A DNA stretch of 64,000 bases from Aestuariivirga sp. (GCA_031424315.1 JANPHF010000083.1:7137-71136); one strand, 5' to 3'. Numbered from the stretch's first letter, positions 2,847-58,788 are shown. A program made the numbers and translations. Notes: a model not told the origin generated them from the letters alone.

Positions 2847-2892
2847 TTGAACACTCTATAACTGTTTTGAGTCGCAAAGTAAGGCATTGGGA

Positions 2893-3873: not shown

Positions 3874-3884
3874 CGCGAAACGCA

Positions 3885-4751: not shown

Positions 4752-7477
4752 TGGGAGAATTGCTCGGGACACTGATGTTTGGCCAGCCATTGGCGCTGTG
4801 GGCGCTTCTGGCCCTGCCCGTGATCTGGTGGCTCTTGCGCGCCACGCCGCCGCGCCCGCGCGAACAGAAATTTCCGCCCATCGAAATTCTCGCGCGGCTG
4901 AAGAACGTCGAACACACGCCTGACAAAATGCCCTGGTGGCTGTTGTTGCTGCGCCTGACGCTGGCCGCCATCCTGATCTTCGCGGTCTCGCACCCCTTCC
5001 AGCGCAAGGGTGATCCAATTGTCTCTGCAAGCAACGGCCCGCTGCTGCTGGTGATGGACGATGGCTGGGCCGCCGCCAAGGATTGGCCCAAGCGTCAAGA
5101 AGCAGCACTCAACATCCTGTCCGAGGCGCAAGGCCGCGTGGTCTATCTGCTGGGCACCAGTGCGCCCGCAGCACCCGAGACGCAGAGCAGCAGCGATGCC
5201 GCTACTCATCTGCGTGCTATGCTGCCCAACGCGCTGAGCAGCAACCGCGCCAAGGCGCTGGATCTGATTTCCAAACTCAATCCGAAGCCTTCGCAAGCGA
5301 TTTGGCTGAGTGATGGCCTCGACGCCGGAACGGCGAAGAGTTTTGCCGATGGCCTGAATGCTCTCGCTTCCACCGCCACCCTCACTTTACCTTCGGCCCA
5401 GCCGCCGCTCGCACTTGGCAGGCCGGAATTGAAAGGCGGTGATGTGGTTGTGAATGTGTTGCGTGCCCCCGCCGCTCCTGCCGAAGCCACACTGCAGGCG
5501 CAGGCCGGAGATGGCCGAATTCTGGCGGAAGCGCCTGTCGTTTTTGGCAGCGCCACCGAAAAGCAAATTCACCTCAATTTGCCTGTGGAACTTCGCAACC
5601 AGATCCAGTCCCTCGCCCTCAAGGGCGAAAGCCAGGCCGCAGCCAAGTCCCTGCTGGACGATAGCTGGCGGCGCAAAACCGTGGCCCTGCTTTCAACCGC
5701 TGGCTTTGGGGCCGATCAACCGCTGCTGTCAGCACAACACTATCTCACCACTGCGCTGGCCGATGGCGCAGAGATCACAACGCCTCAGAATGGCGATGAG
5801 TTGCAAGGCGCGTTGGATCAAGGCCTTTCCATGCTGGTTCTGGCCGATGTCGGCACCCTGCCCCAATCGCAGCACGATGCCATTGCCGTCTGGTTGGACA
5901 AGGGCGGCCTGCTGCTGCGCTTTGCAGGCCCGCACCTTGCAGCCAGCAAGGACGATCTGCTGCCCGTGCAATTGCGCGAGGGAGACCGCAACCTCGGCAG
6001 CGCGTTAAGCTGGGAAACGCCCCAGACCATCAAGGACTTCGCCGCCCAAAGCCCATTAGGTGGGCTAGCCATCGATCCCCAGATCACCGTGTCGCGCCAG
6101 GTGCTGGCCGAGCCGGATGTGGATTTGAGCGCCAAGACTTGGGCCAGCCTGGCGGATGGCACGCCACTCATCACTTCCGCAAAACATGGCAATGGCCGCA
6201 TCATTCTGGTGCATGTCACTGCCAATGCCGAGTGGTCCAATCTGCCGCTCACCGGCACTTATGCTGAAATGATGCAGCGCTTCTTAGCGCTTGCGCCCGC
6301 CGCAGGAAGCCCTTCAGCACAAGGTGCTGCTACGCTCGCAGAGGGTGACTTCGCGCCACGCCTGCTGATGACGGGTACGGGCGATCTCGTTACCCCCACC
6401 GCGCAGGTGAAACCCATCGCAGCCAAAGACATTGCGAGCGCCACTGCCACGGAACAAACGCCAGCAGGCCTCTACTTCCGCAGTGGAGCCAACGCAGCGA
6501 TCAACTTGAAAGTTTCGGCGCAGGATCTGCTGCCGCTGCCAGGCTCCATCAATGCGACGCCGCTCAAACCCGCCGAAACCATCAGCTACGCGCGCGCGCT
6601 GTTCATACTCGCAGCTTTGCTCTTCCTGTTGGATTGCCTCGCAGCCTTGTTTGTTGGCGGCCATCTCTCACGCAAACCAGCAGCATCGATAGCTCTGCTG
6701 GCCTTAGCGCTCATTATACTGCCGGATCCACAGCCAGCTTCTGCGGAGCCTTCTGAGACGGAAGCGATGCAGGCCACGCTGGAAACCCATCTCGCGTTTG
6801 TGAAGACCGGTGACAGTGAAGTGGATCAGGTCAGCGAAGATGGGCTGAAGGGCCTTGACGAAATGGTGCAGGCCCGCACTTCGGCGCAGCTTGGCGCGCC
6901 CAAACCCATCGACATCGAGAATGATGAACTGGTGTTCTATCCTCTGCTCTATTGGCCGGTTCTGCCCGAGGCCGATCCACCGAACCCCAAGGCGCTGGCC
7001 CGCATTGCCGACTATATGAAAAACGGCGGCACGATCTTTTTTGATTTGCGCAATATCGGCGCAAGCCTCGGCACAAGTACGGAAGGCGAAGCCCTGCGCC
7101 GCATTCTGGCCGGGCTGGATGTGCCACCGCTGGAGCCCGTGCCCGAAGGCCATGCGCTGACCAAGAGTTTCTATCTGTTGAAGGATTTCCCCGGCCGTTA
7201 CGAGGGCGGCACACTGTGGGTGGAAACGCAGGACGATCCACAGGCTTCGGGATTTGATAATGTCTCTGGCCTCATCATCGGCAGCAACGACTACGCCGCT
7301 GCTTGGGCAAGTGATGAAACGGGTGGCCCGCTCTATGCCATGGTGCCGGGCTCGCCACGCCAGCGTGAACTTGCCTTTCGCGTTGGCATCAATGTTGTGA
7401 TGTATGTGCTAACGGGCAACTACAAGACCGATCAGGTGCATATTCCCGCCCTGCTGCAAAGGCTGGGCAAGCAATGA
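4751..7477 (+). CDS. BatA-N (double transmembrane N-terminus) / DUF4159 large membrane protein
   Basis: ATG at 4751 overlaps the DUF58 stop (TGATG). N-terminus FGQPLALWALLALPVIWWLLRATPP matches aerotolerance BatA-N type. The long C-terminal region ends with a DUF4159-like segment (VFYPLLYWP...). Confidence 0.7.
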   Translation: MGELLGTLMFGQPLALWALLALPVIWWLLRATPPRPREQKFPPIEILARLKNVEHTPDKMPWWLLLLRLTLAAILIFAVSHPFQRKGDPIVSASNGPLLLVMDDGWAAAKDWPKRQEAALNILSEAQGRVVYLLGTSAPAAPETQSSSDAATHLRAMLPNALSSNRAKALDLISKLNPKPSQAIWLSDGLDAGTAKSFADGLNALASTATLTLPSAQPPLALGRPELKGGDVVVNVLRAPAAPAEATLQAQAGDGRILAEAPVVFGSATEKQIHLNLPVELRNQIQSLALKGESQAAAKSLLDDSWRRKTVALLSTAGFGADQPLLSAQHYLTTALADGAEITTPQNGDELQGALDQGLSMLVLADVGTLPQSQHDAIAVWLDKGGLLLRFAGPHLAASKDDLLPVQLREGDRNLGSALSWETPQTIKDFAAQSPLGGLAIDPQITVSRQVLAEPDVDLSAKTWASLADGTPLITSAKHGNGRIILVHVTANAEWSNLPLTGTYAEMMQRFLALAPAAGSPSAQGAATLAEGDFAPRLLMTGTGDLVTPTAQVKPIAAKDIASATATEQTPAGLYFRSGANAAINLKVSAQDLLPLPGSINATPLKPAETISYARALFILAALLFLLDCLAALFVGGHLSRKPAASIALLALALIILPDPQPASAEPSETEAMQATLETHLAFVKTGDSEVDQVSEDGLKGLDEMVQARTSAQLGAPKPIDIENDELVFYPLLYWPVLPEADPPNPKALARIADYMKNGGTIFFDLRNIGASLGTSTEGEALRRILAGLDVPPLEPVPEGHALTKSFYLLKDFPGRYEGGTLWVETQDDPQASGFDNVSGLIIGSNDYAAAWASDETGGPLYAMVPGSPRQRELAFRVGINVVMYVLTGNYKTDQVHIPALLQRLGKQ

Positions 7478-9537
7478 ACCTGAGCTTCCAGCCCTACCTG
7501 GATTGGCCCTGGCTCGCGGCCTTTGCCGCACTGGTGATTGCCGCCTGTGCCTTCCTCCTGTGGAAGCGTGAGCGTGGCGCGCTGCTGCGCTTGCTTGCTG
7601 GCGCAGCGCTGTTGGCGGCGCTCTTCAATCCTGTACTGCATCAGGACGAGCGTCAACAACTCACAGACATTGCGATCCTCGTCATCGACCACAGCGAAAG
7701 CCAGAACCTAGGCTCGCGCAATGCCGAAACCGACAAAGTTGCAGCAGACTTGCGCCGGCGCATCGCCGCACTCGGCAATATGGAGTTGCGCGAAACCACG
7801 GTCACCTCCGGCACTATACAGGGGCAAGATGGCACGCGTGCCTTTGCAGCGCTGAATAAGGCGATGGCTGATATTCCCGCCAACCGTTTTGCAGGTGCCA
7901 TCTTCATCACCGACGGCCAGATCCACGATGTACCGCAAGGCAAGCCATTGGCTGATTTGAAGGGCCCTCTGCATGGCCTAATCACGGGAAATAAGAATGA
8001 AAGTGATCGCCGCCTCGTCATCGATCACGCGCCGCAATTCACCCTCGTGGGCCAGACAGCCCGCATTGCGTTCCATGTCGAAGACACCAGCAAGAGCGCA
8101 GCTGAGATTCCCATCACCATTCAGGCTGGAACTGATGAACCCAAGAGACTGGTTGTCCGCCCCGGTGCGGCTGCGGAGGTGGATGTGGACATCACCCACG
8201 CAGGCGAAAATTTCATTTCGCTTTCGGCCGAGTTGCGCCCCGGCGAAATCTCCGCCGACAACAATCGCGGCCTCGCCGTGGTGCAAGGTATCCGCGACCG
8301 GCTTCGGGTGTTGCTGATTTCGGGAGAGCCCAATGCCGGCGAACGCACCTGGCGCAATTTGTTGAAAGCGGATTCGGCTGTTGATCTCGTGCACTTCACG
8401 ATTCTGCGCCCGCCGGAAAAGCAAGACGGCACACCCAACAACGAACTCTCCCTCATCACTTTCCCCACGCAAGAGCTGTTTGTTGATAAGCTCGACAAAT
8501 TCGATCTCGTGATCTTTGATCGCTATCACCGCGAGAGCGTGTTGCCCGACGCCTATATCGCCAATATTGCGGATTACGTGCGCAAGGGTGGCGCTCTACT
8601 CGTTTCCTCCGGGCCGGAGTTTGCCGAAGGTGATGGCCTCGATTCCACGCCCATTGCAGATGTGCTCGGCGCTTCCGCCACAGGCAACATTACCGAAGAA
8701 GGTTTCCGCCCCAAGCTTACGACGGTGGGCGAGCGTCATCCCGTCACCCAAGGCCTGAAAGGCGCCAGCGCCACCGCTCCAACCTGGGGCCGATGGTTCC
8801 GCTTGATTGACGCAACTCCGCTGAGTGAACAGGACAAGACAGAAACATTGATGAGTGGCCCACAAGACAAGCCGCTCCTTGTTTTGCGCCGGGTGGAGGA
8901 TGGCCGTGTGGCGCAACTGCTCTCAGATCAAGGCTGGCTCTGGGCGCGTGGCTATGATGGCGGAGGGCCGCAGGCCGAACTGCTCAAGCGCATCGCCCAC
9001 TGGCTGATGAAAGAGCCAGAGCTGGAGGAAGATCGCCTCATCGCCCGCCAACAGGGTGATCAGATTATTGTCGAGCGCCACGGCCTGAAGGATGAATACA
9101 AGTCAGTCACCCTCACAGGGCCGGGAGGCAAGGACGAGGCCATTCCTCTTGCACCCAAGAGCCCGGGCGTTTTCACAGGTGACGTGAACCCCAAAACGCC
9201 GGGCCTCTATGAGGTGAAGGATGGCGCTCTGCAAAGCTTCGTCAATTTCGGCCTCGGCGATGCCAAGGAAATGGCTGAACTGGTGCCCACCTTGGCCAAG
9301 CTCAAGCCAGCGGCTGATGCTACTGGCGGCGGGATGTTCTGGCTGCAGGATGGCCTGCCCCATTTGGGCAAGCAGGACAGCGGTAATGCCTTTGCAGGGG
9401 CGGGCTGGTTGAACCTGCGCGCCAATGGTCAGTTCAAGATTCTCTCCATACGCGAAATAGATCTTTTCTCCAGCCTGATGGCGCTGGCCGCCTTGCTATT
9501 GATTGCCAGCGCGATGTGGAAGCGCGAGGGGCGCTAG
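7474..9537 (+). CDS. conserved membrane protein, fourth gene of the MoxR operon
   Basis: 687-aa ORF with an ATGA overlap to the upstream gene. Has N-terminal TM segments and a C-terminal TM anchor (LMALAALLLIASAMW). Confidence 0.65.
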   Translation: MNLSFQPYLDWPWLAAFAALVIAACAFLLWKRERGALLRLLAGAALLAALFNPVLHQDERQQLTDIAILVIDHSESQNLGSRNAETDKVAADLRRRIAALGNMELRETTVTSGTIQGQDGTRAFAALNKAMADIPANRFAGAIFITDGQIHDVPQGKPLADLKGPLHGLITGNKNESDRRLVIDHAPQFTLVGQTARIAFHVEDTSKSAAEIPITIQAGTDEPKRLVVRPGAAAEVDVDITHAGENFISLSAELRPGEISADNNRGLAVVQGIRDRLRVLLISGEPNAGERTWRNLLKADSAVDLVHFTILRPPEKQDGTPNNELSLITFPTQELFVDKLDKFDLVIFDRYHRESVLPDAYIANIADYVRKGGALLVSSGPEFAEGDGLDSTPIADVLGASATGNITEEGFRPKLTTVGERHPVTQGLKGASATAPTWGRWFRLIDATPLSEQDKTETLMSGPQDKPLLVLRRVEDGRVAQLLSDQGWLWARGYDGGGPQAELLKRIAHWLMKEPELEEDRLIARQQGDQIIVERHGLKDEYKSVTLTGPGGKDEAIPLAPKSPGVFTGDVNPKTPGLYEVKDGALQSFVNFGLGDAKEMAELVPTLAKLKPAADATGGGMFWLQDGLPHLGKQDSGNAFAGAGWLNLRANGQFKILSIREIDLFSSLMALAALLLIASAMWKREGR

Positions 9538-10082
9538 GCCCGCTTGGCGTCAACAATTTCACGCCACCGCCAGGGCGGAAGCGCCAACCCCTGTGCTTCA
9601 GCCAAGGCACCGGCTTTGAGTTCAAGATAAAGCAGGCGTTTGGGATCAAACACCCCAGGCATGTCCATCTGCCGTTCCGGCACTTGCTGAAAGCCCACCC
9701 GCGCGTAATAGGGCGCATCACCAATGAGAATGACAAGGCCATGGCCCTTGGCCGTGGCCCGCGCGATGCCTTCCTGCATTAGGGCCAGCCCAATGCCCAG
9801 ACGCTGCCGCGCCGGATGCACTGCGAGCGGCCCCAGCAATAACGCGGGTGCCAGCGTGGGGCCAATCAGCAAGGGCCAAAAGGAAATGGCGCCAACCAAT
9901 CCAAAGCCTTCTTCCTGCACCAGCAACGAAAGGCCAGAAATGGCGGCGCTTCCCTCGCGCAACCGATATGACATTTTGGTGCGCCGGCTCGGCCCAAAGG
10001 CCAAATCAAGCAAATGCTCAACAGCAGCGGAGTCAGCAGGGGTCTGGTCGGAAACTTTGTGGATCTGGTTCATGGGGGCCAA
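9534..10082 (-). CDS. GNAT family N-acetyltransferase
   Basis: 182 aa with the acetyl-CoA motif HPARQRLGIGLALM. Convergent 4-nt stop overlap with the upstream gene. Confidence 0.75.
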   Translation of the reverse strand: MAPMNQIHKVSDQTPADSAAVEHLLDLAFGPSRRTKMSYRLREGSAAISGLSLLVQEEGFGLVGAISFWPLLIGPTLAPALLLGPLAVHPARQRLGIGLALMQEGIARATAKGHGLVILIGDAPYYARVGFQQVPERQMDMPGVFDPKRLLYLELKAGALAEAQGLALPPWRWREIVDAKRA

Positions 10083-10208
10083 CGTTAAATGGATTTCATC
10101 TGCCCCGGCATGCGCGAGGGGCGGCTCAGGCGAAACGTCGGCCGCGTCGGATGTTGGTGATGTTGAACTTGTCCATGTCAGGCCCGATAACGCCTGCGCG
10201 CTGGTTCG

Positions 10209-10667
10209 TCAAGGCTTCCAATGTTCAGAAATGGTAGCGCCGCGCAACACTTCGTCAATGCGCGCCCGCGAACCGGGCTTCAGATCAGGCGGCAATTCAT
10301 GCAGGTGGAAGAACCGTGCTTCGCGGATTTCAAAGCCTGGCTTGAAGGCACCTTGGGTGAATCTCCGCAACACATAACAAGCGACGTGATCGCCCGGAAA
10401 ATCCGCATCATTGGAGAAAATGCCATGGAACTGCAAAGGCTCAAGGGCCTCAACCGCAGCCTCTTCCATCAATTCACGCACCGCCGCTTGCGCCAAGGTC
10501 TCGCCCCGGTCCACGCCACCACCGGGCAGTGTCCATCCCGCAACATAACCGGGCCGCACCAGCAACACGCGTTCTTGCTCATCCACCACCACGACGCGGG
10601 CCCCCAGCGTCTTGCCGCGCATCAGCCGCGCATGCAACCGGAACAGCCAATAAGGAAAAATTTTCAA
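10209..10667 (-). CDS. Nudix hydrolase
   Basis: Nudix box GGGVDRGETLAQAAVRELMEEAAV. The ORF is open to 10757, but that would overlap the divergent gene start. TTG 10667 (AGGA 6 nt upstream) or ATG 10622 are more plausible starts. Confidence 0.7.
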   Translation of the reverse strand: MKIFPYWLFRLHARLMRGKTLGARVVVVDEQERVLLVRPGYVAGWTLPGGGVDRGETLAQAAVRELMEEAAVEALEPLQFHGIFSNDADFPGDHVACYVLRRFTQGAFKPGFEIREARFFHLHELPPDLKPGSRARIDEVLRGATISEHWKP

Positions 10668-10750
10668 GCCTAATCCTGTGCGAAACCAACCATTTGAACC
10701 ACCTCTTTTATGGGGTAAAGCTGATTTGAACAAACCGGAAAAATTGCTCG

Positions 10751-11890
10751 ATGACATCCGCCATCACCACCCGCCCTGTCGAAACCAAAGCTGACGAGAT
10801 CACTTTTCTGAAAGTACCCTTCCCCATCTACAAGGACGACAAGGCCTGGGTGGCGCCGCTGTTCCTCGAGCGATTGGAACACATCAGCCAGAAGAAGAAC
10901 CCTTATTTCCAGCACGCCAAGGGCCAGCTTTTTATCGCGGAGAAAAATGGCAAACCCGTAGGCCGCATTTCGGCGCAAGTCGATCAATTGCATATCGATC
11001 GCTACAAGGACGCCACCGGAAGCTTTGGCTTTCTCGAAGCTCAGGATGATCCCGCCATTTTTGCAGCGCTGTTCAAAACGGCGGAAGGCTGGTTGCGCGC
11101 CCAAGGCATGAAGCGCGCGCTCGGCCCCTTTTCATTTTCCATCAATGACGAAATTGGTTTGCTGATTGATGGCTTCGAAACCATGCCCAATATGTTGATG
11201 GGCCATGCCCCGCGCTATTATCAGGCGCGCGTGGAAGAACAGGGCTACGCCAAGGCCAAGGACGTGCTGGCCTATGAATTCGATAGCGTCAAAGGCCTGC
11301 CGCCCACCATGCGCAAGATGGTGGACCGCATGATGGCATCGGGCGATCTCACCGTGCGCCCGCTCAACAAGAAGAACATGGCCAGCGAAATTGACATCGT
11401 GATGGACATCTTCAACGACGCCTGGTCCGACAATTGGAATTTTGTGCCCTTCACGCGCGCTGAGGTGAACAACCTCGCCAATCTCTTCAAGATGCTGCTG
11501 GATGCAAAGGCCGTGCAGTTTTCATTTTGGAAGGGAGAGCCAGCAGCTTTCTGCCTGGCCATCGCCAATATCAATGAGTGGTTCCAGGGCCTGGATGGCA
11601 AAGTGCTGCCCTTTGGTTGGGCCAAGTTGCTGCCACGCGTGATGAGTGGCAGGTCCCGCTCAGTGCGCGTGCCACTCATGGGGGTCAAAAAGAAATATCA
11701 GGATGGCGCCATCGGCGCCGGCCTTGCGCTGGCCTGCATCCGCGCCTCATCGGACCATGTGATTTCCAAGGGCGTCACCCATGGCGAATATTCCTGGATC
11801 CTTGAAGATAATATGCGCGTGCGCCATATCCTCGAAAGCATGGGCAGCCGCATTTACAAAACCTACCGCGTTTATGAAAAGCAGCTGTGA
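10751..11890 (+). CDS. GNAT-like acyltransferase, candidate bacterial ceramide synthase (bCerS-like)
   Basis: 379-aa ORF, first gene of a translationally coupled operon that converges on spt. Size and context match the N-acyltransferase required for ceramide synthesis in Caulobacter. Homology is not verified. Confidence 0.55.
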   Translation: MTSAITTRPVETKADEITFLKVPFPIYKDDKAWVAPLFLERLEHISQKKNPYFQHAKGQLFIAEKNGKPVGRISAQVDQLHIDRYKDATGSFGFLEAQDDPAIFAALFKTAEGWLRAQGMKRALGPFSFSINDEIGLLIDGFETMPNMLMGHAPRYYQARVEEQGYAKAKDVLAYEFDSVKGLPPTMRKMVDRMMASGDLTVRPLNKKNMASEIDIVMDIFNDAWSDNWNFVPFTRAEVNNLANLFKMLLDAKAVQFSFWKGEPAAFCLAIANINEWFQGLDGKVLPFGWAKLLPRVMSGRSRSVRVPLMGVKKKYQDGAIGAGLALACIRASSDHVISKGVTHGEYSWILEDNMRVRHILESMGSRIYKTYRVYEKQL

Positions 11891-12780
11891 AATTCACGCT
11901 CGCCCACTTTTCAGATTTGCATCTCGGCCCGCTGCCTGCAGGGGCCGCCTTCCATGCCTTTCGTTCAAAGCGGTTGCTTGGTGCGCTGTCCTGGCACTTC
12001 CGCCGCAAATACATCCATTCCGCAGAAGTGGCTGAAGCCCTGCTCAAGGACATTCAATCCGCACACCCAACGCATGTGGCTTTCACAGGGGATGCCGCGA
12101 ACATTGCCAGCCCCCTGGAATTTCCCAAGCTGCGGGGGTGGCTCGACAGGCTGGGCAAGCCCGATTGGATTTCCTTCACCCCTGGCAACCACGATGCTTA
12201 TGTGAAGGTGAAACACGAAAAGGGCCTCGCCTTCTTCGCTCCCTTCATGACGGGCGACATGCGGCAGGAGCAGGCCTTCCCCTATGTGCGCCTGCGCCGC
12301 AATATTGCCCTGATCGGCTTGAACAGTGCCGTGCCGCGCTTCTATCACAGCGCCGAAGGTCGGTTGGGCCTTGATCAGCGCATCGCCCTGCGTCAGCGCC
12401 TTGCCGAACTTCGCGCCAAAGGCTTTTATCGCTGCGTGATGATCCACCACCCACCAGGCCCGGGCCTCGCCACCAAATTGCGCGCTCTTCAAGATGCAAG
12501 CGAACTGCGAGACATTCTCTGTGAAGAAGGCGTTGAACTTGTCATTCATGGTCACAATCACAAGCGCATGTTGAACTGGCTGGAAAAAGGCGGTTCGCGT
12601 GTGCCAGCTGTCGGCGTGCCTTCGGCCAGCGCCGATGAAGATCATCATCCTGCAGAATGGAACCTCTACACCATCGCCCGCACGGCAAAGGGCTGGCACA
12701 CCGTGGTTGACATCCGCCAGTGGGACAAGGCCAGCACATCATTCAAATCGGCTCAACGCTTTGAACTTGGTGCCGCATGA
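11887..12780 (+). CDS. metallophosphoesterase
   Basis: Motifs HFSDLHLG, GDAANI, GNHD, HHPP and GHNH. GTGA overlap with the upstream stop. Confidence 0.8.
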   Translation: MKFTLAHFSDLHLGPLPAGAAFHAFRSKRLLGALSWHFRRKYIHSAEVAEALLKDIQSAHPTHVAFTGDAANIASPLEFPKLRGWLDRLGKPDWISFTPGNHDAYVKVKHEKGLAFFAPFMTGDMRQEQAFPYVRLRRNIALIGLNSAVPRFYHSAEGRLGLDQRIALRQRLAELRAKGFYRCVMIHHPPGPGLATKLRALQDASELRDILCEEGVELVIHGHNHKRMLNWLEKGGSRVPAVGVPSASADEDHHPAEWNLYTIARTAKGWHTVVDIRQWDKASTSFKSAQRFELGAA

Positions 12781-13844
12781 GCCTCATTGCCAATCTATTG
12801 ACGCGCATGATTATGATCCGCTTCGCGGTGATCCTGCTTGGGCTTTCGGCCTTTGTGCTGACGCTGGAGGCGGTAAGCTATCTCAATGACATTCTGAAGC
12901 TGAACAGCAACCCGCTGATTGCAATGCTGCTTTATGGCATCATGCGCCTTCCTGCGACCCTTTCACTCTTCTTGCCTACGAGCCTGTTGCTGGCACTGCT
13001 GCTTTCGACCACGGAGTTGTCTTATCGCAATGAGCTCACCGCCATCTGGGCCACGGGCATTTCACCCACGCGCCTCATCCGCATGCTCATTCCCCTAGCG
13101 CTCGTGGTGGGCGGCATCAATTTCCTGATTGCCGACCAGGCGGTGCCGGCGGCAGCACCCTTCCTGAGATCCTGGGGCATTGGCGACTACGCCACCCGCA
13201 AATTCACCACCAATCCGGATGACCCGGTATGGATGCGCTCAGGCGATGACATCATGCGCGCTGACCGCGTAACTGATAATGGCGATGTGCTGGAAAATCT
13301 TATCATCTTCCGCCGTGAAAAAACCGGTGAGTTGCGTGAACAGGTTTTCGCCGATACAGCAGTTCAGAATGATGGCCGCTGGTTGCTCAAGAATGTAACT
13401 GTTTATTACGCCAATGGCGAAAAGCCGACGCATCTAGATCAGATGATCTACGACGGCGCCTTGCAGCTGGCTTCCAATAAGGTGGCTGGGCCTGAAGAGA
13501 TGACGACGCTGGAACTTTCCCGCTTCATCGCCAACAAGGGCTTCGGCGTGCGCCCGCAATATGTTTATGAAACTTGGTGGTATAAGCGCCTCACGCCGCC
13601 GGTGATTGCGATCGTGATGATCATGCTTTGCGTGCCTCTGGGCACCTATTTCCGCCGCGGCGGCGGTTTGGGTGGCATCTTCGTGGCAGGTGTGTTGATG
13701 GGCTTCGTTTATTTCGTGGGCGACGGCGTGGCCATGACCTTGGGCGAAACCGGCCGCGTGGCGCCGTGGCTTGCGGCCTGGGGCCCAATCCTCCTCTTTG
13801 CCGCGCTTGGCTTCGCTCTCTTGGCGCGCACGGATCACGTATGA
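12777..13844 (+). CDS. LptF/LptG (YjgP/YjgQ) family permease, unpaired
   Basis: 355 aa. Has the N-terminal 3 TM, a periplasmic beta-jellyroll-like middle (WMRSGDDIMRADRV...GRWLLKNVTVYY) and C-terminal 3 TM. ATGA overlaps on both sides. Confidence 0.75.
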   Translation: MSLIANLLTRMIMIRFAVILLGLSAFVLTLEAVSYLNDILKLNSNPLIAMLLYGIMRLPATLSLFLPTSLLLALLLSTTELSYRNELTAIWATGISPTRLIRMLIPLALVVGGINFLIADQAVPAAAPFLRSWGIGDYATRKFTTNPDDPVWMRSGDDIMRADRVTDNGDVLENLIIFRREKTGELREQVFADTAVQNDGRWLLKNVTVYYANGEKPTHLDQMIYDGALQLASNKVAGPEEMTTLELSRFIANKGFGVRPQYVYETWWYKRLTPPVIAIVMIMLCVPLGTYFRRGGGLGGIFVAGVLMGFVYFVGDGVAMTLGETGRVAPWLAAWGPILLFAALGFALLARTDHV

Positions 13845-14800
13845 CGCGCAAGGCCGGAGTTCTCATTAATCCAACGGCAGGCCGCGGCAATGGCAAGGGC
13901 CTGCGCTTGGCAGCAGCTCTTGGCAGCGCCACCCATGTCGATGTGCGCCTGATGGAGAGTTTTCAGCAGATCCGGCAACACCTTCTCGACATGGCCCAAG
14001 AGGGCGTGACCGATCTCTTCATTTCCTCCGGCGACGGCACCGTTCAGGCTGTTCAAACTCTTTTGGCCGAAGAGCACATCTTTGAAACATTCCCGCGCCT
14101 GGCTCTGCTGCCACATGGCACAACCAATCTTACAGGCATCGATGTTGGCTTCCGGATTCGCTCCATCGCTGGGCAGGCGAATTACATTTCCACGCTGCCC
14201 CAGCCCAAAGTGCAACGCCGCCATAGCCTGCGCGTGGCCAATCCGGCGGATGGCCAGCCACGCCATGGCATGACGCTGGGTGCAGGTGCGGCCGCGCGCG
14301 GCACGCGCCATGCACAGGAAGCCTTCAACAACAAGGGCGTGAAGGGCGCTTTCGCCAGCTTCGCCACCATCGCCGGCGGCCTGGCCCGCGCTTCTGTGAG
14401 CCGCGCTGAGGGCGATGATCCAGGCAGGCTGGATCGGCCCTGCGAAATGGCAATCCGGTACGAGGGCCACGACGTCACCAAGGGGCCACAACTCATGTTC
14501 GTCGCCACAACTCTGCGTCACCTCTTCTTCAGAACGCGGCCCTTCTGGGGCGGCAAGCGCGGTCCCATTCGCGCGTCGGTATTTCCTCATCCGACACCCA
14601 ATATTCTGCGCTGGGCCCTGCCCATGATGTATGGCGGCGAATTGCGCTCAGCGCCCGCAGGCGCCCACAGCTTCTCTGGCACCGGCTTTGAAATCGCCAG
14701 CGCCGAACCTTATGTGATGGATGGCGAGTTTTTTGACGGGCCGGATCAGGGCCTGCTTCAAGTCGCGGCAGGTCCCGAGTGGGAATTCATCACCGGCTGA
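13841..14800 (+). CDS. diacylglycerol/sphingosine kinase-fold lipid kinase (candidate ceramide kinase)
   Basis: ATG 13841 overlaps the lptFG-like stop. Contains N-terminal GVLINPTAGRGNG and the SSGDGTVQAV (GDGT) motif of the DAGK catalytic domain. Confidence 0.7.
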   Translation: MTRKAGVLINPTAGRGNGKGLRLAAALGSATHVDVRLMESFQQIRQHLLDMAQEGVTDLFISSGDGTVQAVQTLLAEEHIFETFPRLALLPHGTTNLTGIDVGFRIRSIAGQANYISTLPQPKVQRRHSLRVANPADGQPRHGMTLGAGAAARGTRHAQEAFNNKGVKGAFASFATIAGGLARASVSRAEGDDPGRLDRPCEMAIRYEGHDVTKGPQLMFVATTLRHLFFRTRPFWGGKRGPIRASVFPHPTPNILRWALPMMYGGELRSAPAGAHSFSGTGFEIASAEPYVMDGEFFDGPDQGLLQVAAGPEWEFITG

Positions 14801-14801
14801 A

Positions 14802-15983
14802 CTAGCCGCGCACGGCGTGCTTGAAAATGTCGATGATGCGGTCGATCTCCGCATCCGTATGCGCCGCCGAAACCGAGCAGCGCAGCAAGCACAGGCGGTT
14901 TGGTGTGCCGGGCGGCACAGCCATGTTCACATAAACCCCGCCTTGGAATAGCGCGTTCCATTTTGCAATGGTGGTGAGTTCGTCGGGCATCTTGACCGCG
15001 ATCACCGGGCTCACTTCATCGCAACCCATGTCAAAGCCAAGGCCCTCGAGGCCTTTGTAGAGCCGCTCGGAATTGGCCCACAGCTTGGCGCGGCGCTCCG
15101 GTTCCGCCTTCAACACACGCAGTGCAGCGATGGATGTTGCGATGGATGCAGGCGATGAAGACGCGGTGAACATATAGGGCCGCATGGCATAGCGCAACGT
15201 TTCAAACAGCGGGTGATTACCTGCGCCAAAGCCGCCAATGGCGCCCACGCTTTTTGAGAATGTGCCGATGACGAAATCCACGTCCTTCTCAAGCCCCGCC
15301 TCGTCACCAAGGCCACGGCCATTGGGCCCAAGCACGCCAAAGGAATGGGCATCATCCACCAGAAGCTGGAACTCAAACTTCTTCTTCAATTCAACGAAAT
15401 CCTTGAGCGGCGCGCGGTCGCCCAGCATTGAATAAATGCCTTCGAGAACCACAAGACGGCCGCCTTCCGTGTCGTCGCGTGCCATGCGCTTGGCCAAATC
15501 TTCCGCATCATTGTGGCGGAAGCGCACCAACTTGGCGCCTGAAAGCGTGCAGCCATCATAAATCGAGGAATGCGAATCCGAGTCGAGATAGATCGTGTCC
15601 TTCGGCCCCGCGAGGCCAGAGAGCATGCCGAGATTAGCTTGATAACCGGTGGTGAAAACAATGCAGTGCTGCAAGTCGAGGAAGGATGCCAGTTCCTTCT
15701 CCAGTTCCTTGTGCATGGCGAAGGAGCCATTGGCGATGCGCGAACCTGTGGTGCCCGTGCCGAATTCTTCCAGCGCCTTCTGACCGGCTGCAATGCAACG
15801 CTTGTCGAAAGTGATGCCCATGTAGTTATTGGTGCCCGCCAGCAGAATCTCGCGGTTGCCCACGATTGCGTGGGTCGGCGAAATCATCTTGTCATTGGTG
15901 ACGCCCAGGCCGTTGATGCCCATATCCAGCATCCGTTGGAAGCGGTCAGCAATGCCACGGTGCTTTTCGAGAAGATCAACCAT
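14802..15983 (-). CDS. spt: alpha-oxoamine synthase, serine palmitoyltransferase-like
   Basis: 393 aa with the PLP-lysine motif GTFSKSVGAIGG. Sits immediately downstream of a dedicated ACP, a reductase and an acyl-AMP ligase. Confidence 0.75.
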   Translation of the reverse strand: MVDLLEKHRGIADRFQRMLDMGINGLGVTNDKMISPTHAIVGNREILLAGTNNYMGITFDKRCIAAGQKALEEFGTGTTGSRIANGSFAMHKELEKELASFLDLQHCIVFTTGYQANLGMLSGLAGPKDTIYLDSDSHSSIYDGCTLSGAKLVRFRHNDAEDLAKRMARDDTEGGRLVVLEGIYSMLGDRAPLKDFVELKKKFEFQLLVDDAHSFGVLGPNGRGLGDEAGLEKDVDFVIGTFSKSVGAIGGFGAGNHPLFETLRYAMRPYMFTASSSPASIATSIAALRVLKAEPERRAKLWANSERLYKGLEGLGFDMGCDEVSPVIAVKMPDELTTIAKWNALFQGGVYVNMAVPPGTPNRLCLLRCSVSAAHTDAEIDRIIDIFKHAVRG

Positions 15984-15986
15984 GCG

Positions 15987-16235
15987 TCAGCCCTTGTTCA
16001 ATTGAGATTGCACAAAGGCGGCAAGCTCGCCCACCGTGCGGATGTTGGAAACGGCGTTCATCGGAATTTCAATGTCGAAATGGTCTTCCACTTCCATGAT
16101 GAAATCGAGAACGCCAACGGAATCGATATTCAGCTCGGCCGGAATGTCAGTCGCCTCGGTGAGTGCCAGGTTTTCAGGATTGAAGGGCTTAAGCAAATCA
16201 ACGAGAACGGGAACAATTTCAGAAATCTGAGTCAT
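15987..16235 (-). CDS. acyl carrier protein (dedicated)
   Basis: 82 aa with the phosphopantetheine site NIDSVGVLDFIMEVE. Confidence 0.85.
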   Translation of the reverse strand: MTQISEIVPVLVDLLKPFNPENLALTEATDIPAELNIDSVGVLDFIMEVEDHFDIEIPMNAVSNIRTVGELAAFVQSQLNKG

Positions 16236-17173
16236 GACGCGCTTCTAGTCTCTTGAGAAAGGGGCGGCAACCAGCCGTGTTGGCGATACCAGTTGAGGGT
16301 TTCAGCAAGGCCTTCAGAAAGCCCAATGGCACGCTCACGCGGCCAGATTTCGCCACCCGCCGTCCAGTCGCGGTGATAAAGCTCATTCACCTTGCCGGGA
16401 TTGGTAAGCGAAGGCCTGTTGGTGACGCGCGAATATCCCTCCATCGCCGCAGCGGCCGCATAGGCCACAGGCTTAGGAATGTAGACAACGCGCTGCGGCA
16501 GCCCGGTGAGGCGGCGGCTTTCGGCGGCCAACATGGTCCAGTCATAGCTGCCATTGCGATCATCGAGTTCAACCAGCCCGGTGCGCGGCGAGGCCACGGC
16601 TTCCGCCGCCACGCGCGCAAAATCACGCACATGCATCAGGGCAAAACGTGCATCCTTTCGCCCCGGCACAAAAGCAGTCTTCGCCTGCAACGCCTTCATC
16701 AAAGGCAGCGTGGCCTTGTCGCCTGGGCCATAGATCGCAGGCGGGCGCAGGACCAGAACTTCGGGGCCACCATATTGACCGATGAGGAAATGCTCCGCCG
16801 CCGCTTTGGAGGCACCATAGGATGAGAGTGCAGGTTCACGCGCCGCCATCGAGGAAACAAACACGAAGCGCTTGAGGCCCGCCCCACGCGCGGCGGCATA
16901 GAGCTTGCGCGTGCCTTCCAGATTGGCTGCGAAGAAGCCAAATCGGTTGCGTGCCGAAATGGCGCCCGCAACATGCAACACCGCGTCTGCGTCTTTCACC
17001 AAGGCCGCCAGCGCCGCTTCATCTGCAAGGTCGCCCTTGACGATTTGAACTTTGCGCCCGTCCAGCGCTTCAGGCTTGCGCGCGAGGGCTGCAACCTCGT
17101 GCCCCTGCTCCAGCAATGATTCCAGAATGAGAGGCCCCGAGAACCCCGTGGCCCCTGTAAGTGCAACGCGCAT
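16232..17173 (-). CDS. NAD-dependent epimerase/dehydratase-fold reductase (CerR-like)
   Basis: Start ATG 17173 gives MRVALTGATGFSGPLI (GxxGxxG). ATGA overlap with the ACP start. The longer ORF to 17248 overlaps the upstream gene. Confidence 0.75.
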   Translation of the reverse strand: MRVALTGATGFSGPLILESLLEQGHEVAALARKPEALDGRKVQIVKGDLADEAALAALVKDADAVLHVAGAISARNRFGFFAANLEGTRKLYAAARGAGLKRFVFVSSMAAREPALSSYGASKAAAEHFLIGQYGGPEVLVLRPPAIYGPGDKATLPLMKALQAKTAFVPGRKDARFALMHVRDFARVAAEAVASPRTGLVELDDRNGSYDWTMLAAESRRLTGLPQRVVYIPKPVAYAAAAAMEGYSRVTNRPSLTNPGKVNELYHRDWTAGGEIWPRERAIGLSEGLAETLNWYRQHGWLPPLSQETRSAS

Positions 17174-17189
17174 CAGGAAATGTCCAGAT

Positions 17190-19010
17190 TCACTCAACCG
17201 GCGCGGCGAAAACCACCATCTCGCCAGCGAGATATTTTGCGCGCGCACCCGCGCGTGAAAGCTTGCCAGACGAAGTAAACGGCAGCGAACGTGGCGCCAC
17301 CAACTCTACTTTACAATCAACCCCAGAGCCCTGATGAACCAGCTTGGCCACTTCGCGGCGCAAACTGTCTTGCTCGACGGTTTCGACCGCGCGGCATTCC
17401 ACCAGCACCACAACTTCATCGTCGCCATCATCGCCTTCAACAGCAAATGCGGCCACGTCGCCGGATTTGAGATGGGCGTATTGCTCCGCCGTCCATTCAA
17501 TGTCCTGCGGCCAGATATTGCGGCCATTGTGCAGGATCAGGTCTTTGACGCGGCCGGTGATGACAATCTCATCGCCCAGCAAATAGCCCATGTCTCCCGT
17601 GTCAAGGAACCCGTCTGGGCTAATCGTGTCGCTGGTGGCTTCGGCATTGTTGTAATAGCCGGACATTACGCTGGGGCCCTTGACAAAAATGCGCCCGATC
17701 TCACGTTCGCCCAACACCGATCCAGCCGAGTTGCGAACCTCCATGGTGTGGCCGGGAATCACGCGCCCACACACCACATAGCCACGCGAGTCAGCGCCAC
17801 CCGCCTGCGCAGGCGTGGCCAAATTCTCATTGCGCACAGCGTGGCGCGAGACGTGATCGACGCGCAGCGGCTGGCCAGACCTCGGGAAGGAAATCGCCAG
17901 CGTGGATTCTGCCATGCCATAGCAAGGCAGGAATGCAGTGGGCGCAAACTTCGCCACTTCCAACGCCTTGCCAAATTCAGCCAACACATCGGGCCGCACC
18001 ATGTCGCCACCAATGCCCGCGCTACGCCAGCAGCTGAGATCAAGTTTCGCCGCTTCCGCCCCAATGCGCTTGGCAGCAAGATCATAGCCGAATGTGGGTG
18101 AGAAAGAGATGGTGCAGCGGTTATCTGAAATCAGCTTCAGCCACAGGCCCGGGCGGCGTGCAAAGGCCGTGGTGGCAAGATAATCCACGCTGAATTGGCC
18201 CAGAAGCGGCGTCAGGCAGAAACCCACAAGCCCCAAGTCGTGATAGAGTGGCAACCAGGAAAAACCCCGGTCCCCCGGTTTGGCGTCCGTTCCAAACACT
18301 GCAATTGCCCGCGCATTGTCCATGATCGCGCGCTGCGAAATCAGAACGCCTTTTGGTGCCGAGGTAGAGCCCGATGAATATTGGATATAGGCCACGTCAT
18401 CGCCCGCAAAGCCCTGCAGCTTTGCAATGGCTTCCGGCTTGGCGGCCAGTTCATCATGCGTCAGCACAATTTTCACGCCGGCCAATTGTGCCGCGCCCTT
18501 GATGCTATCAACTTGCTCAGCCGGCGTGACAATGGCGCTGGCATCAGCCGCCTTCAACATCCCCGCAATGCGCTGCTCATAGGCTTCGCGCCCGCCGATA
18601 TACATGCTGTAAGGCACCGGGCATGGGATGAGGCCCGCATATTGGCACGCAAAGAAGGTTACAACGAATTCCGGGCCGGTCTCGGCCACAATGGCCACGC
18701 GCTCTTTGCGGTGCAGGCCAATAGACATGAGCTTGCGTGCCGTCATCAAGGCTCGGCGTCGCAATTCGGAGAACGGCAACACATGAGACAGCGCGCCGCG
18801 GCCGGAATAGAAATTGAAGCCGGTCACGCCCTGCGCCGCATAGTCAAGGCCTTCAGCCAACGTGGAAAAATCGGAGATCCGCAACGGCAAATCGCGGTTG
18901 AGGGTTGGCGTCTTCACCAACACATTTTCCGTCTTTAGAGTTTCAGTAAGTGCTGAAGTTCCGCTCACGATTCCAAACCCGCCTAATTTCTCAACGGCTG
19001 GTTCTAACAA
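17190..19010 (-). CDS. fatty acyl-AMP ligase / acyl-ACP synthetase
   Basis: AMP-binding motif YIQYSSGSTSAPKGV and C-terminal TGDMGY...GRVKD. Start uncertain (TTG at 19010 is the ORF maximum). Confidence 0.8.
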   Translation of the reverse strand: MLEPAVEKLGGFGIVSGTSALTETLKTENVLVKTPTLNRDLPLRISDFSTLAEGLDYAAQGVTGFNFYSGRGALSHVLPFSELRRRALMTARKLMSIGLHRKERVAIVAETGPEFVVTFFACQYAGLIPCPVPYSMYIGGREAYEQRIAGMLKAADASAIVTPAEQVDSIKGAAQLAGVKIVLTHDELAAKPEAIAKLQGFAGDDVAYIQYSSGSTSAPKGVLISQRAIMDNARAIAVFGTDAKPGDRGFSWLPLYHDLGLVGFCLTPLLGQFSVDYLATTAFARRPGLWLKLISDNRCTISFSPTFGYDLAAKRIGAEAAKLDLSCWRSAGIGGDMVRPDVLAEFGKALEVAKFAPTAFLPCYGMAESTLAISFPRSGQPLRVDHVSRHAVRNENLATPAQAGGADSRGYVVCGRVIPGHTMEVRNSAGSVLGEREIGRIFVKGPSVMSGYYNNAEATSDTISPDGFLDTGDMGYLLGDEIVITGRVKDLILHNGRNIWPQDIEWTAEQYAHLKSGDVAAFAVEGDDGDDEVVVLVECRAVETVEQDSLRREVAKLVHQGSGVDCKVELVAPRSLPFTSSGKLSRAGARAKYLAGEMVVFAAPVE

Positions 19011-19090: not shown

Positions 19091-19612
19091 TTAGAACTTC
19101 ACAAGCCCAACAGCCAGGCCCCAAGCTACAAGGCCCAGAACGCCGAACAACAGGCCAGTTATCCACACATAGACCAACTCACCCAGTCCGTAGTGGCGCG
19201 CACCATCTCTGACGCGGTGTGCAATGCCTGCAGCTTGCTTGTCATGCGCCACCAGCCGGTGCGCCATGTGGCGCAACGCCTGGGCGTGCATGGCCTGCGC
19301 CTCGGTACTTTCAAACACGCTCTCCCGGCCTTGCGGGCCATCTTGCATCAAGCGATAGGTCTTAGGGTTGGGCTCCATCTCAATGAATGAAATGAGATCG
19401 AGCCACAGCTTTGGCTTTTCGGAATCCTGAAGGTTGAGTTCAAACAGGCCAAGCGCCTCATCGTGGCCAGCAAGATCACGTTTGAGTGCATCGCGCAGCG
19501 CCAGCAAACGCAGGCTGCGGGCATCACGCAGCGAAACCACGGCTTCAAGCTGCGCCGCTTCGGCCAGCCTTGCCTGCTTCAATGCCTGCGTGAACGCATC
19601 AGCTTTACTCAT
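19091..19612 (-). CDS. hypothetical tail-anchored membrane protein
   Basis: 173-aa ORF. Has a helical, charged N-terminal part and a single C-terminal TM (WITGLLFGVLGLVAWGLAVGLV). Confidence 0.45.
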   Translation of the reverse strand: MSKADAFTQALKQARLAEAAQLEAVVSLRDARSLRLLALRDALKRDLAGHDEALGLFELNLQDSEKPKLWLDLISFIEMEPNPKTYRLMQDGPQGRESVFESTEAQAMHAQALRHMAHRLVAHDKQAAGIAHRVRDGARHYGLGELVYVWITGLLFGVLGLVAWGLAVGLVKF

Positions 19613-19696: not shown

Positions 19697-20446
19697 CTAA
19701 TTTTCGCGCTGCCGCGTGAAAGGCCGCAAAATAAGGCGCGCCAACGGCTGATCATGCAATCCCTCCACGCCCATGTCCATGTCGGGCGCACGCTGGTGGC
19801 GACTTATGCTCAGGAAAATGCGGTCCCATACCGAAAGAATCGTGGAATAGTTGGAATCCGTGTCCGCCCGCAGCGCATGGTGATGCAGCCAATGTATGGA
19901 AGGTGTGACAATCACATAGGACAGCACGCGTTCAAACCCGGGTGGCAGCTTCACATTGGAATGTTGAAACAGTGCCGCCACAATAATCAGTGTTTCAAAC
20001 ACCACGACAGTTCCAATAGGAACACCGACAAGCCAGATCACGCCAGCGCGCGCGACGGACGAAAGCGCCACTTCACCAAAATGAAAGCGCAACGCCGTGG
20101 TTGTATCCAAAGTTTCGTCAAGGTGATGCACCTCGTGAAAGCGCCAGAGCAACGGCACCACATGGTTCAGCCGGTGCCACACATAGATCCAAAGATCGAG
20201 CACCAGGAGATCAAGCGCCATGTTCCACCACGAAGGCCGTAGGTTGATTGCATGAGCTGCTGCAAATTGTGACAGCGGCAACACGACGAGCGGCCCGATC
20301 AGGAAATTCGCGCCGGCGAGCGAGAAATTGCGGGTCAGCCGGCTAACGCTTTCTTTCACGCGCACGGCAGGAAACACCCGTTCCAAGATGAACAAGGCCA
20401 TCAATGTCGCCAAGACAATGCCCGCCTTGTTTGTGAAAAACTGCAT
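19697..20446 (-). CDS. fatty acid hydroxylase / sterol desaturase family di-iron membrane enzyme
   Basis: His boxes HRLNH, HEVHH and HWLHHH. ATG 20446 is preceded by GGGAG at 5 nt. Confidence 0.8.
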   Translation of the reverse strand: MQFFTNKAGIVLATLMALFILERVFPAVRVKESVSRLTRNFSLAGANFLIGPLVVLPLSQFAAAHAINLRPSWWNMALDLLVLDLWIYVWHRLNHVVPLLWRFHEVHHLDETLDTTTALRFHFGEVALSSVARAGVIWLVGVPIGTVVVFETLIIVAALFQHSNVKLPPGFERVLSYVIVTPSIHWLHHHALRADTDSNYSTILSVWDRIFLSISRHQRAPDMDMGVEGLHDQPLARLILRPFTRQREN

Positions 20447-20545
20447 GCTTACTCCCGCTACCATCATAGCGCGCCACCCGCCTTGCCCAAATCACTTCGC
20501 CGCGATAGGTTGCCGCGTGGGGGTTCTAGCCATTTGGAGGCCATT

Positions 20546-22135: not shown

Positions 22136-22199
22136 ACTTTCTCCCGCCGGGCAAAGGTTCAGCCTTGGCGCCAGTTGTTGTTTCAACCACTATAGAAAG

Positions 22200-30990: not shown

Positions 30991-31086
30991 GCATTGCGCG
31001 GAGTTGAAACTGGGGATTAGAGCAATTCTGGGTTGCCTTTCCGCTTCTTTTGTGATGAATGCTCCCTTCGCGACTGGGGAGTCAAA

Positions 31087-32292: not shown

Positions 32293-32322
32293 GAAGCATG
32301 CACGAGGCAAAAAACTGAATTT

Positions 32323-33309: not shown

Positions 33310-33312
33310 GCC

Positions 33313-34994: not shown

Positions 34995-35045
34995 GCAAAC
35001 AAGAAACGTCGTCCAGGCGAAAGCTATGGATTCGCCGGGCCTTGC

Positions 35046-58723: not shown

Positions 58724-58788
58724 CGCCCGAGTTACCGCTTTATTAATCCAAGGCACATAAAACCCGATTGGAAAAATCGGGGATATTG

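Follow-up and report, generated by a model that had tools for sequence, protein, structure and literature searches.

A 64-kb stretch of DNA from Aestuariivirga sp. (GCA_031424315.1, JANPHF010000083.1:7137-71136; hereafter the window, meaning the whole stretch, with positions counted from its first letter) carries four adjacent plus-strand genes that encode, in order, a putative bacterial ceramide synthase-like acyltransferase (bCerS), a metallophosphoesterase, a permease of the LptF/LptG family, and a lipid kinase of the diacylglycerol kinase (DAGK) fold (Table 1). The domain assignments of a first-pass annotation of the window (PF00149, PF03739, and PF00781) hold for the last three genes, but the order given in its title, with the permease ahead of the phosphoesterase, was wrong. 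Successive genes share 4-nt overlaps of stop and start codons, exactly as that annotation had reported, namely, GTGA at 11887, ATGA at 12777, and ATGA at 13841 (in context, ctGTGAaa, gcATGAgc, and gtATGAcg); at the first of these junctions, the acyltransferase stop codon TGA (11888-11890) shares bases with the GTG start of the phosphoesterase. The starts are supported by alignments with dozens of homologs, in which the N-termini match orthologs from residue 1, and by independent gene calls on two metagenome contigs with an identical permease, which delimit the same genes of 379, 297, 355, 319, and 393 amino acids (aa). Identical overlaps are present in L005, one of the related loci (numbered L001 upward), which is 83% identical. 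A search for Shine-Dalgarno-like sequences before the three internal starts found none, which fits translational coupling. The 4-base overlap is the commonest operon junction, so these overlaps are evidence of an operon and of co-translation, and of nothing more exotic.

This operon faces a minus-strand set consisting of the genes for serine palmitoyltransferase (spt), an acyl carrier protein (acp), a CerR-like reductase, and an acyl-AMP ligase. A single nucleotide separates the kinase stop codon (TGA, 14798-14800) from that of spt (TAG on the minus strand, 14802-14804), which leaves no room for a terminator; scans for promoters and terminators performed no better than on shuffled sequence. 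In L006, the kinase and spt genes overlap by 4 nt. The spt product passes the NCBI serine palmitoyltransferase equivalog, and spt, acp, and the genes for the CerR-like reductase and acyl-AMP ligase make up the ceramide-synthesis set described for Caulobacter, which identifies a sphingolipid locus, as initially proposed for the block. The region forms the core of a sphingolipid locus of proteobacterial type in an Aestuariivirga-related member of Hyphomicrobiales. For the first gene of the operon, searches against Pfam, NCBIfam, and PDB sequences gave no match; its product is 61% identical to the protein encoded at this position in L001 and 52% identical to that in L003, and the putative bCerS assignment is made by synteny, not by comparison with CCNA_01212.

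Table 1. Genes of the sphingolipid locus and its immediate surroundings in the Aestuariivirga sp. window
Feature	Position	Strand	Length (aa)	Basis or note
Putative bacterial ceramide synthase (bCerS, CC_1154-type N-acyltransferase), first gene of the operon	10751..11890	+	379	Synteny
Cytoplasmic metallophosphoesterase at the CC_1158 position	11887..12780	+	297	PF00149; GTG start
LptG-type permease (LptG2-like), no LptF2 partner gene	12777..13844	+	355	PF03739
Soluble DAGK-fold lipid kinase at the CpgB (CC_1160) position, putative ceramide kinase	13841..14800	+	319	PF00781
Serine palmitoyltransferase (spt)	14802..15983	-		NCBIfam NF047599, 571 bits (cut-off 500)
Dedicated acyl carrier protein (AcpR-like)	15987..16235	-		PF00550; position conserved in all related loci
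CerR-like NAD(P)-dependent reductase	16232..17248	-		Epimerase and NAD_binding_10 domains
Fatty acyl-AMP ligase (AasR-like acyl-ACP synthetase)	17190..19010	-		NF006624, 756 bits (cut-off 600)
Tail-anchored protein	19091..19612	-	173	Same position in L001, L003, L005, L006, and L007
Fatty acid hydroxylase-family membrane enzyme	19697..20467	-		PF04116

The permease, whose gene has cerS about 0.9 kb away and spt at about 1 kb, is an LptG-type rather than an LptF-type subunit. It matches PF03739 (LptF_LptG) over its full length (220.5 bits; residues 8-351 of 355, profile positions 3-353 of 353), and hydropathy analysis delineates six transmembrane segments and a periplasmic domain at residues 119-271; an AlphaFold2 (AF2) model (predicted local distance difference test, pLDDT, 82.5) places beta strands at residues 151-225. 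In Foldseek comparisons, this model yielded TM-scores of 0.74-0.83 to solved LptG chains, against 0.50-0.60 to LptF chains, the best match being Vibrio cholerae LptG (6mjp_G, 0.83). Within RNELTAIWATGIS, residue E86 falls opposite the SEL motif in the coupling helix of four solved LptG chains and is invariant across an alignment of 34 homologs; we take it to be the counterpart of E88 of Escherichia coli LptG, the glutamate that docks onto LptB. The permease thus shares with the canonical LptB2FGC complex (PDB 6MJP, 6MIT, and 6MHU) the fold, the six transmembrane helices, the periplasmic beta-jellyroll inserted between the third and fourth of these helices, and the coupling-helix glutamate. It differs in showing 17-20% identity to the solved LptG chains, in lacking an adjacent lptF, in a genomic context of sphingolipid synthesis instead of lipopolysaccharide (LPS), and in scoring below both equivalog cut-offs: 199.1 bits on TIGR04408 (LptG; cut-off 240) and 101 bits on TIGR04407 (LptF; cut-off 230), with its orthologs reaching 197-221 bits on the former. 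Searching the permease with phmmer against all six-frame open reading frames (ORFs) of the 64-kb window, to which our counts of Lpt genes apply, revealed no second LptF/G homolog, so that the initial description of the permease as an orphan stands on this scale; in Pfam scans of the other window genes, no LptB, LptC, LptA, or ABC ATPase was found.

Dedicated Lpt components for sphingolipids have been described in Caulobacter, where CC_1168, CC_1156, and CC_1155 are annotated as LptC2, LptF2, and LptG2 and proposed to be phosphosphingolipid exporters (Olea-Ozuna et al. 2024, PMC11324152). The gene order there is CC_1158, CC_1157 (HIT), CC_1156 (LptF2), and CC_1155 (LptG2), together with CC_1159-1165, among which CC_1160 is described as the ceramide kinase CpgB (PMC11324152). 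Most recently, lptF2, lptG2, and lptC2 were reported to be deletable only in spt or cpgB mutants, so that LptF2/LptG2 are needed only when anionic sphingolipid is made; the two proteins co-purify, and each of them binds the single LptB (Uchendu, Isom and Klein 2026, bioRxiv 10.64898/2026.04.12.717747). The suggestion of the first-pass annotation that the permease is dedicated to sphingolipid was a reasonable one, but its statement that such a transporter had not been described is outdated (PMC11324152; bioRxiv 10.64898/2026.04.12.717747). An Lpt-like permease dedicated to sphingolipid is already, if very recently, known; what differs here is the make-up of the transporter, with LptG2 and without LptF2. 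The string "LptG2" in a Brucella paper turned out to be a superscript artefact and not a gene name, and a PDB search returned no matching entry for CpgD, CpgB, or LptF2/G2.

The window locus resembles that of Caulobacter LptF2/LptG2 (CCNA_01214/CCNA_01213, that is, CC_1156/CC_1155) in placing an LptG-type permease inside a sphingolipid locus, beside cerS, a calcineurin-type phosphoesterase, and a DAGK-fold kinase, with no lptB in the locus. It differs in the absence of lptF2, the HIT gene, and lptC2; of cpgA, cpgC, cpgD, and CC_1153, so that the locus encodes no pathway for ceramide diphosphoglycerate (CPG2); and of candidate flippases, with neither a counterpart of CC_1166 nor a gene for an MsbA-like exporter.

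To place the permease among its relatives, we compared loci from a scan of genome contigs, which returned 14 loci, none from the window's own genome, and from metagenome contigs. The homologs fall into two groups. Those at 59-83% identity (L005-L015, L019, and L021) show the layout CerS-phosphoesterase-permease-(kinase), converging on spt, and the layout with a single LptG2 (G2) is common to 13 related loci. In those at 48-54% identity (L001, L003/L016, L017, and L018), an additional PF03739 gene of 404-408 aa lies directly upstream of the permease ortholog and is usually preceded by a small HIT-domain gene. This additional gene is LptF-type (207-218 bits with the LptF model against 116-125 bits with the LptG model) and is denoted LptF2 (F2), whereas the 357-aa gene that follows is LptG-type. 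L001, L003/L016, and L017 accordingly read metallophosphoesterase-(HIT)-LptF-type-LptG-type-(CDP-alcohol transferase)-kinase-(285-aa protein), converging on spt-acp-cerR-ligase. In L001, the order is CerS, a MobA-like protein, an NTP-transferase, the phosphoesterase, HIT, F2, G2, a CDP-alcohol transferase, the kinase, and the 285-aa protein, with the spt-acp-cerR-ligase genes convergent with this block. This locus contains counterparts of 14 Caulobacter sphingolipid genes, and both the phosphoesterase-HIT-F2-G2 block (CC_1158 to CC_1155) and the block corresponding to CC_1159-1165 keep the Caulobacter order.

The four proteins of the window operon are 45-61% identical to their counterparts in L001 and L003, and the permease is the ortholog of the second gene in the F2-G2 pairs of L001, L003, and L017. 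No counterpart of F2 or HIT was found in the window by comparison with L001 and L003, and the 10 kb around each single-type locus contain no F2. With all four proteins matched and F2 and HIT without counterparts, the window permease is LptG2 minus LptF2. In a neighbor-joining tree of 63 G2 sequences rooted on F2 and built without bootstrap, the single-type loci group together in one clade that is nested among the pair-type sequences, and the Thermopetrobacter locus L020 is a separate, deep-branching single. Gene order and phylogeny together indicate that the clade, comprising Aestuariivirga and related Hyphomicrobiales metagenome-assembled genomes (MAGs), cleanly lost HIT and LptF2 at this locus and that the single state is derived, a point overlooked when the permease was first described as an orphan. 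The retained gene is still under purifying selection, with a ratio of nonsynonymous to synonymous substitution rates (dN/dS) of about 0.1 within the single-type clade, where dS is near saturation. Only three differences are fixed between single-type and pair-type G2, all of them periplasmic (L197Q, N214G, and I258V) and none in the transmembrane segments; being so few and so placed, these clade-specific changes were uninformative as pointers to a new partner.

These relationships bear on whether the permease might simply be the housekeeping LptG of the organism, serving LPS and lying beside sphingolipid genes by chance. A precedent exists in Sphingomonas wittichii, an LPS-free producer of glycosphingolipids whose LptFG (Swit_3905/3906), next to sphingolipid genes, is the only such pair in the genome. 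The two loci are alike in that Lpt-family permeases adjoin cerS, spt, and a kinase and are presumed to export sphingolipid; however, S. wittichii has a pair, the sole one it possesses, whereas the window has a lone gene of LptG type, and its lineage is expected to produce LPS too. The permease fails the NCBI LptG equivalog, is orthologous to the LptG-type member of dedicated F2-G2 pairs in sphingolipid loci, and shares only about 34% identity with a cluster that comes from an alphaproteobacterial MAG and is named canonical LptG; this cluster and the Thermopetrobacter permease are the two named ones among the representatives at 34-41% identity. Its closest named homolog, from Aestuariivirga litoralis (Hyphomicrobiales; 66% identity), is labeled in RefSeq only as "LptF/LptG family permease", and distinct, essential LptB, LptC, LptF, and LptG are known from the literature on other Hyphomicrobiales. 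That the permease is the canonical subunit, an objection the first-pass annotation had itself raised, we therefore consider very improbable.

Another possibility is that the LptF2 partner has moved elsewhere in the genome, in which case the transporter would be an ordinary LptB2-F2-G2 complex as in Caulobacter. Sphingolipid genes are scattered in Sphingomonadales according to the literature, and the gene inventory examined here is 64 kb of a genome. We scanned metagenome contigs with an F2 alignment, relying on two exact peptide motifs, and fetched the best 80 of 113 matches (48-68% identity). In all 67 of these F2 loci with sequence downstream, G2 follows directly, and each time it is pair-type, at most 55% identical to the window G2, never of the window type; no lone, relocated F2 was seen among these 67 informative loci. 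The single-G2 clade is abundant in the same metagenome data, where, of the 120 best G2 clusters, about 50 share 57% identity or more with the window permease, so the lack of any lone F2 argues against a relocated partner, as does its absence from the 10-kb surroundings of the single-type loci. We judge relocation to be quite improbable; were the partner gene to sit elsewhere, the locus would be an ordinary new member of a known system.

The explanation that we favor, and think somewhat likelier to be right than wrong, is that this is a locus for sphingolipid synthesis and export that has lost LptF2, with LptG2 working together with housekeeping LptF and LptB. In such a scheme, Spt, AcpR, the acyl-AMP ligase, bCerS, and CerR would make (dihydro)ceramide, which the soluble DAGK-fold kinase would phosphorylate to ceramide-1-phosphate. 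The permease, as LptG2, would be the LptG-type subunit of a sphingolipid-specific paralog of the LptB2FG extractor, which would pull the lipid from the inner membrane and feed it to the Lpt bridge. A single deletion in the clade would have removed lptF2 along with the preceding HIT gene, joining the phosphoesterase, lptG2, and kinase genes by overlapping stop and start codons. LptG2 would have remained functional and would pair with the housekeeping LptF and the housekeeping LptB ATPase, the latter as in Caulobacter, in a hybrid LptB2-F-G2 complex. The stronger proposition, that the clade lacks LptF2 genome-wide and assembles such a mixed transporter, we put forward tentatively, as possible but short of probable.

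LptG2 would presumably need a second membrane subunit, and housekeeping LptF is the favored candidate because the transmembrane surfaces of G2 are unchanged between the pair type and the single type. In solved LptB2FGC structures, the exit route to LptC runs through the periplasmic domain of LptF, so that keeping G2 while borrowing housekeeping LptF would preserve the bridge. A homodimer of LptG2, in which two copies with LptB2 would constitute a symmetric extractor of ceramide lipids with no need for an LptF-type subunit, would also account for the presence of just one PF03739 gene in the operon, in the 13 related loci, and in the deep-branching Thermopetrobacter locus, and for the strong constraint on lptG2; a homodimeric ancestor of LptF and LptG, which are paralogs of the same fold, is plausible. 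On the other hand, the switch from pair type to single type brought no clade-specific change in transmembrane helix 1, transmembrane helix 5, or the coupling helix, the subunit retained is LptG-type although the exit to LptC passes through LptF, and the literature searched yielded no description of an LptF/G homodimer. We regard the homodimer as unlikely, if less so than relocation.

Several considerations weigh against the hybrid transporter with housekeeping LptF and, in part, against the framework around it. Nothing that we computed favors a hybrid of LptF and LptG2 over a homodimer of LptG2. A divergent relocated F2 may have escaped a scan made with two motifs and the best 80 of 113 matches, and a canonical lptF-lptG pair, lptB, and the lack of a relocated lptF2 are assumed for the genome beyond the 64 kb read. 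The proposed orthology to CCNA_01213, CCNA_01216, and CCNA_01218 is drawn along a chain of synteny through L001, in families that evolve fast: the Caulobacter proteins share only 25-33% identity with the corresponding proteins of Hyphomonas and Sphingomonas (PMC11324152). Finally, the sister loci L013, L014, and L021 are without the kinase, so that anionic head groups do not extend to the whole clade.

If the hybrid exists, one swappable half of a membrane dimer redirects an LPS export machine to ceramide lipids. How sphingolipids reach the Gram-negative outer membrane was an open question until the Caulobacter work of 2024 and 2026 pointed to a duplicated LptFG pair that shares LptB. A widespread environmental clade that keeps a constrained LptG2 half is a natural experiment on this duplicated-LptFG model, and it raises the questions of whether the membrane subunits are separable, which of them determines the specificity for the lipid, and whether LptF, besides LptB, is common to the export of LPS and of sphingolipid. 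Because A. litoralis is validly named and its genome carries orthologs, these questions may be open to genetics, given a culture.

We assessed the association of the other genes with the permease by counting co-occurrence only in loci with enough flanking sequence, which for Spt meant at least 4.5 kb downstream of the permease. On this basis, Spt is present in 27 of the 32 related loci, the phosphoesterase lies upstream of the permease in 77 of 85, CerS is nearby in 39 of 43, and the kinase in 37 of 43. The check suggested at the outset, co-occurrence of the block with spt across genomes, thus ties the two together and removes the objection that the block might be widespread in genomes lacking spt. 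The loci without Spt are L010, L039, L045, L057, and L089; in L039, another gene follows the gene in the CC_1161 position, and then the fetched sequence ends. L010, from an Aestuariivirga sp. MAG, has after its kinase gene a KAP-type P-loop NTPase of 735 aa, a Cas1-like protein of 404 aa, and a further large ORF, a stretch (7250-11940) that looks like an inserted island. Loci that lack the kinase and keep the phosphoesterase occur in both groups, L013, L014, and L021 among the single-type and L055, L078, L086, L087, and L091 among the pair-type; L021 and the five pair-type loci are those that enter the kinase count above.

A half ABC exporter resembling MsbA (ABC_membrane and ABC_tran domains, 564 aa) is encoded directly upstream of cerS in many related loci, including L007 (6247-7941) and about 20 F2 loci (for example, L026-L030, L032, L038, and L039), and is a candidate ceramide flippase. 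The window has no such gene upstream of cerS; a GNAT acetyltransferase gene and a NUDIX gene are located there, on the opposite strand.

The kinase scores 46 bits on PF00781 (DAGK_cat), shows no transmembrane segment in hydropathy analysis, and is 51% identical to the kinase of L001, which is encoded between a CDP-alcohol transferase (the CC_1159 position) and the 285-aa protein (the CC_1161 position). The same two genes flank orthologous kinases in L017 and many F2 loci, and both are absent from the window. The initial comparison of the kinase with CpgB is thus borne out by its position, that of CC_1160 in related loci. CpgB (CC_1160/CCNA_01218) is a bacterial ceramide kinase with a GGDG ATP-binding motif (Dhakephalkar 2023, PMC10331486). 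Like CpgB, the window enzyme is soluble, has a DAGK catalytic domain, and is encoded directly upstream of, and convergent with, spt, and its orthologs in related loci have cpgA-like and cpgC-like genes on either side; the likeness is known from sequence and position. Unlike CpgB, it has S-G-D-G in place of GGDG at residues 63-66, within an SSGDGT motif that is conserved in 119 of 120 kinase homologs, and the downstream enzymes of the ceramide phosphoglycerate (CPG) pathway are missing. By analogy, the kinase probably makes ceramide-1-phosphate, and with no cpgA, cpgC, or cpgD in the locus, ceramide phosphate, not ceramide diphosphoglycerate, would be the expected anionic product.

The phosphoesterase appears to be an accessory member of the sphingolipid module, an active phosphodiesterase-type enzyme located in the cytoplasm. 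Its metallophosphoesterase motifs are complete (D10xH12, GD69, GNHD100-103, HH187, and GHNH222-225), hydropathy reveals no transmembrane segment, and the nearest folds to its AF2 model (pLDDT 92) are those of Lmo2642, Rv0805, GpdQ, SMPDL3A/B, and acid sphingomyelinase (Foldseek TMq 0.55-0.70). An LpxH-like role was rejected on the fold, for which TMq is about 0.33, compared with 0.55-0.70 for the phosphodiesterases. Just past motif I, at residues 24-39, a helix is inserted in which F24, K27, R28, W35, and R39 are invariant among 30 homologs; this helix could serve to bind membranes or lipids, in keeping with a lipid substrate.

The Caulobacter counterpart, CC_1158 (CCNA_01216), belongs to the calcineurin-type phosphoesterases and contributes mildly to CPG2 formation, its mutant showing a mild shift between CPG and CPG2 (PMC11324152). 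The two enzymes have the same domain and the same place at the head of the phosphoesterase-HIT-F2-G2 block. However, CC_1158 is thought to act late in CPG2 formation, whereas the window enzyme persists in the absence of CPG2 genes, and sister loci keep it even when the kinase is missing. In the 2024 survey, no ortholog of CC_1158 was found in Hyphomonas, Sphingomonas, Zymomonas, Nitrosomonas, Azotobacter, or Pseudomonas luteola (PMC11324152), in contrast to the Hyphomicrobiales group of the window, in which this phosphoesterase is nearly universal. Since it tracks CerS and the permease more tightly than it does the kinase, and kinase-less loci keep it, the phosphoesterase is not strictly tied to a kinase encoded in the locus, which weakens remodeling of phospho-head groups as its obligatory role. 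Head-group remodeling, as suggested in the first-pass annotation, was a guess that these loci and the mild CC_1158 phenotype do not bear out, and the near-universal coupling to the permease marks the phosphoesterase as an unexplained part of the module.

Among the convergent genes, the true start of the CerR-like reductase is probably the ATG at 17173, which gives 313 aa, in line with the 313-317 aa of its orthologs. The 173-aa protein, located between the acyl-AMP ligase and the fatty acid hydroxylase, had no match in a Pfam scan and consists of a helical N-terminal part and a single C-terminal transmembrane helix. It was ruled out as a hidden LptC2, being tail-anchored with a helical N-terminus as opposed to an N-terminally anchored beta-jellyroll. 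The PF04116 enzyme, which adjoins the locus also in L001, L005, L006, L008, L009, and L021, is likely a sphingolipid or acyl-chain hydroxylase.

Further afield, the window encodes other proteins that may touch on head groups. At 31033-34209 (plus strand), a GT2 glycosyltransferase also passes Glyco_transf_21, the ceramide glucosyltransferase family (31 bits; cut-off 21.7), is followed by two FkbM-type methyltransferases, and could be a glycolipid or glycosphingolipid head-group enzyme. A 378-aa protein of the PAP2_3 superfamily (58768-59904, plus strand) is encoded at a distance of 44 kb from the locus; this family includes enzymes resembling inositol-phosphorylceramide and sphingomyelin synthases, and the protein may have a bearing on sphingolipid head groups. 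At 21335-22186 (minus strand), a CDP-alcohol phosphatidyltransferase resembles phosphatidylcholine synthase (222 bits; NCBIfam cut-off 300), and the corresponding position in L005 and L006 holds a comparably sized gene (266 and 263 aa) with no Pfam match, the likeness being one of size and position only.

Upstream of the locus, at 2887-9537 (plus strand), lie genes for a MoxR ATPase, a DUF58 protein, a BatA/DUF4159 protein, and a 687-aa protein. The latter two are upstream in many related loci, both single- and pair-type, and all four are in L005 and L006; the block probably reflects lineage synteny and lies outside the sphingolipid system. A 1462-aa RTX-repeat protein with 26 HemolysinCabind stretches is encoded beside a BTLCP transglutaminase-like cysteine protease at 34335-39434, a pair that resembles adhesin systems of the LapA/LapG type, and a GGDEF-EAL protein is encoded at 48661-50073.

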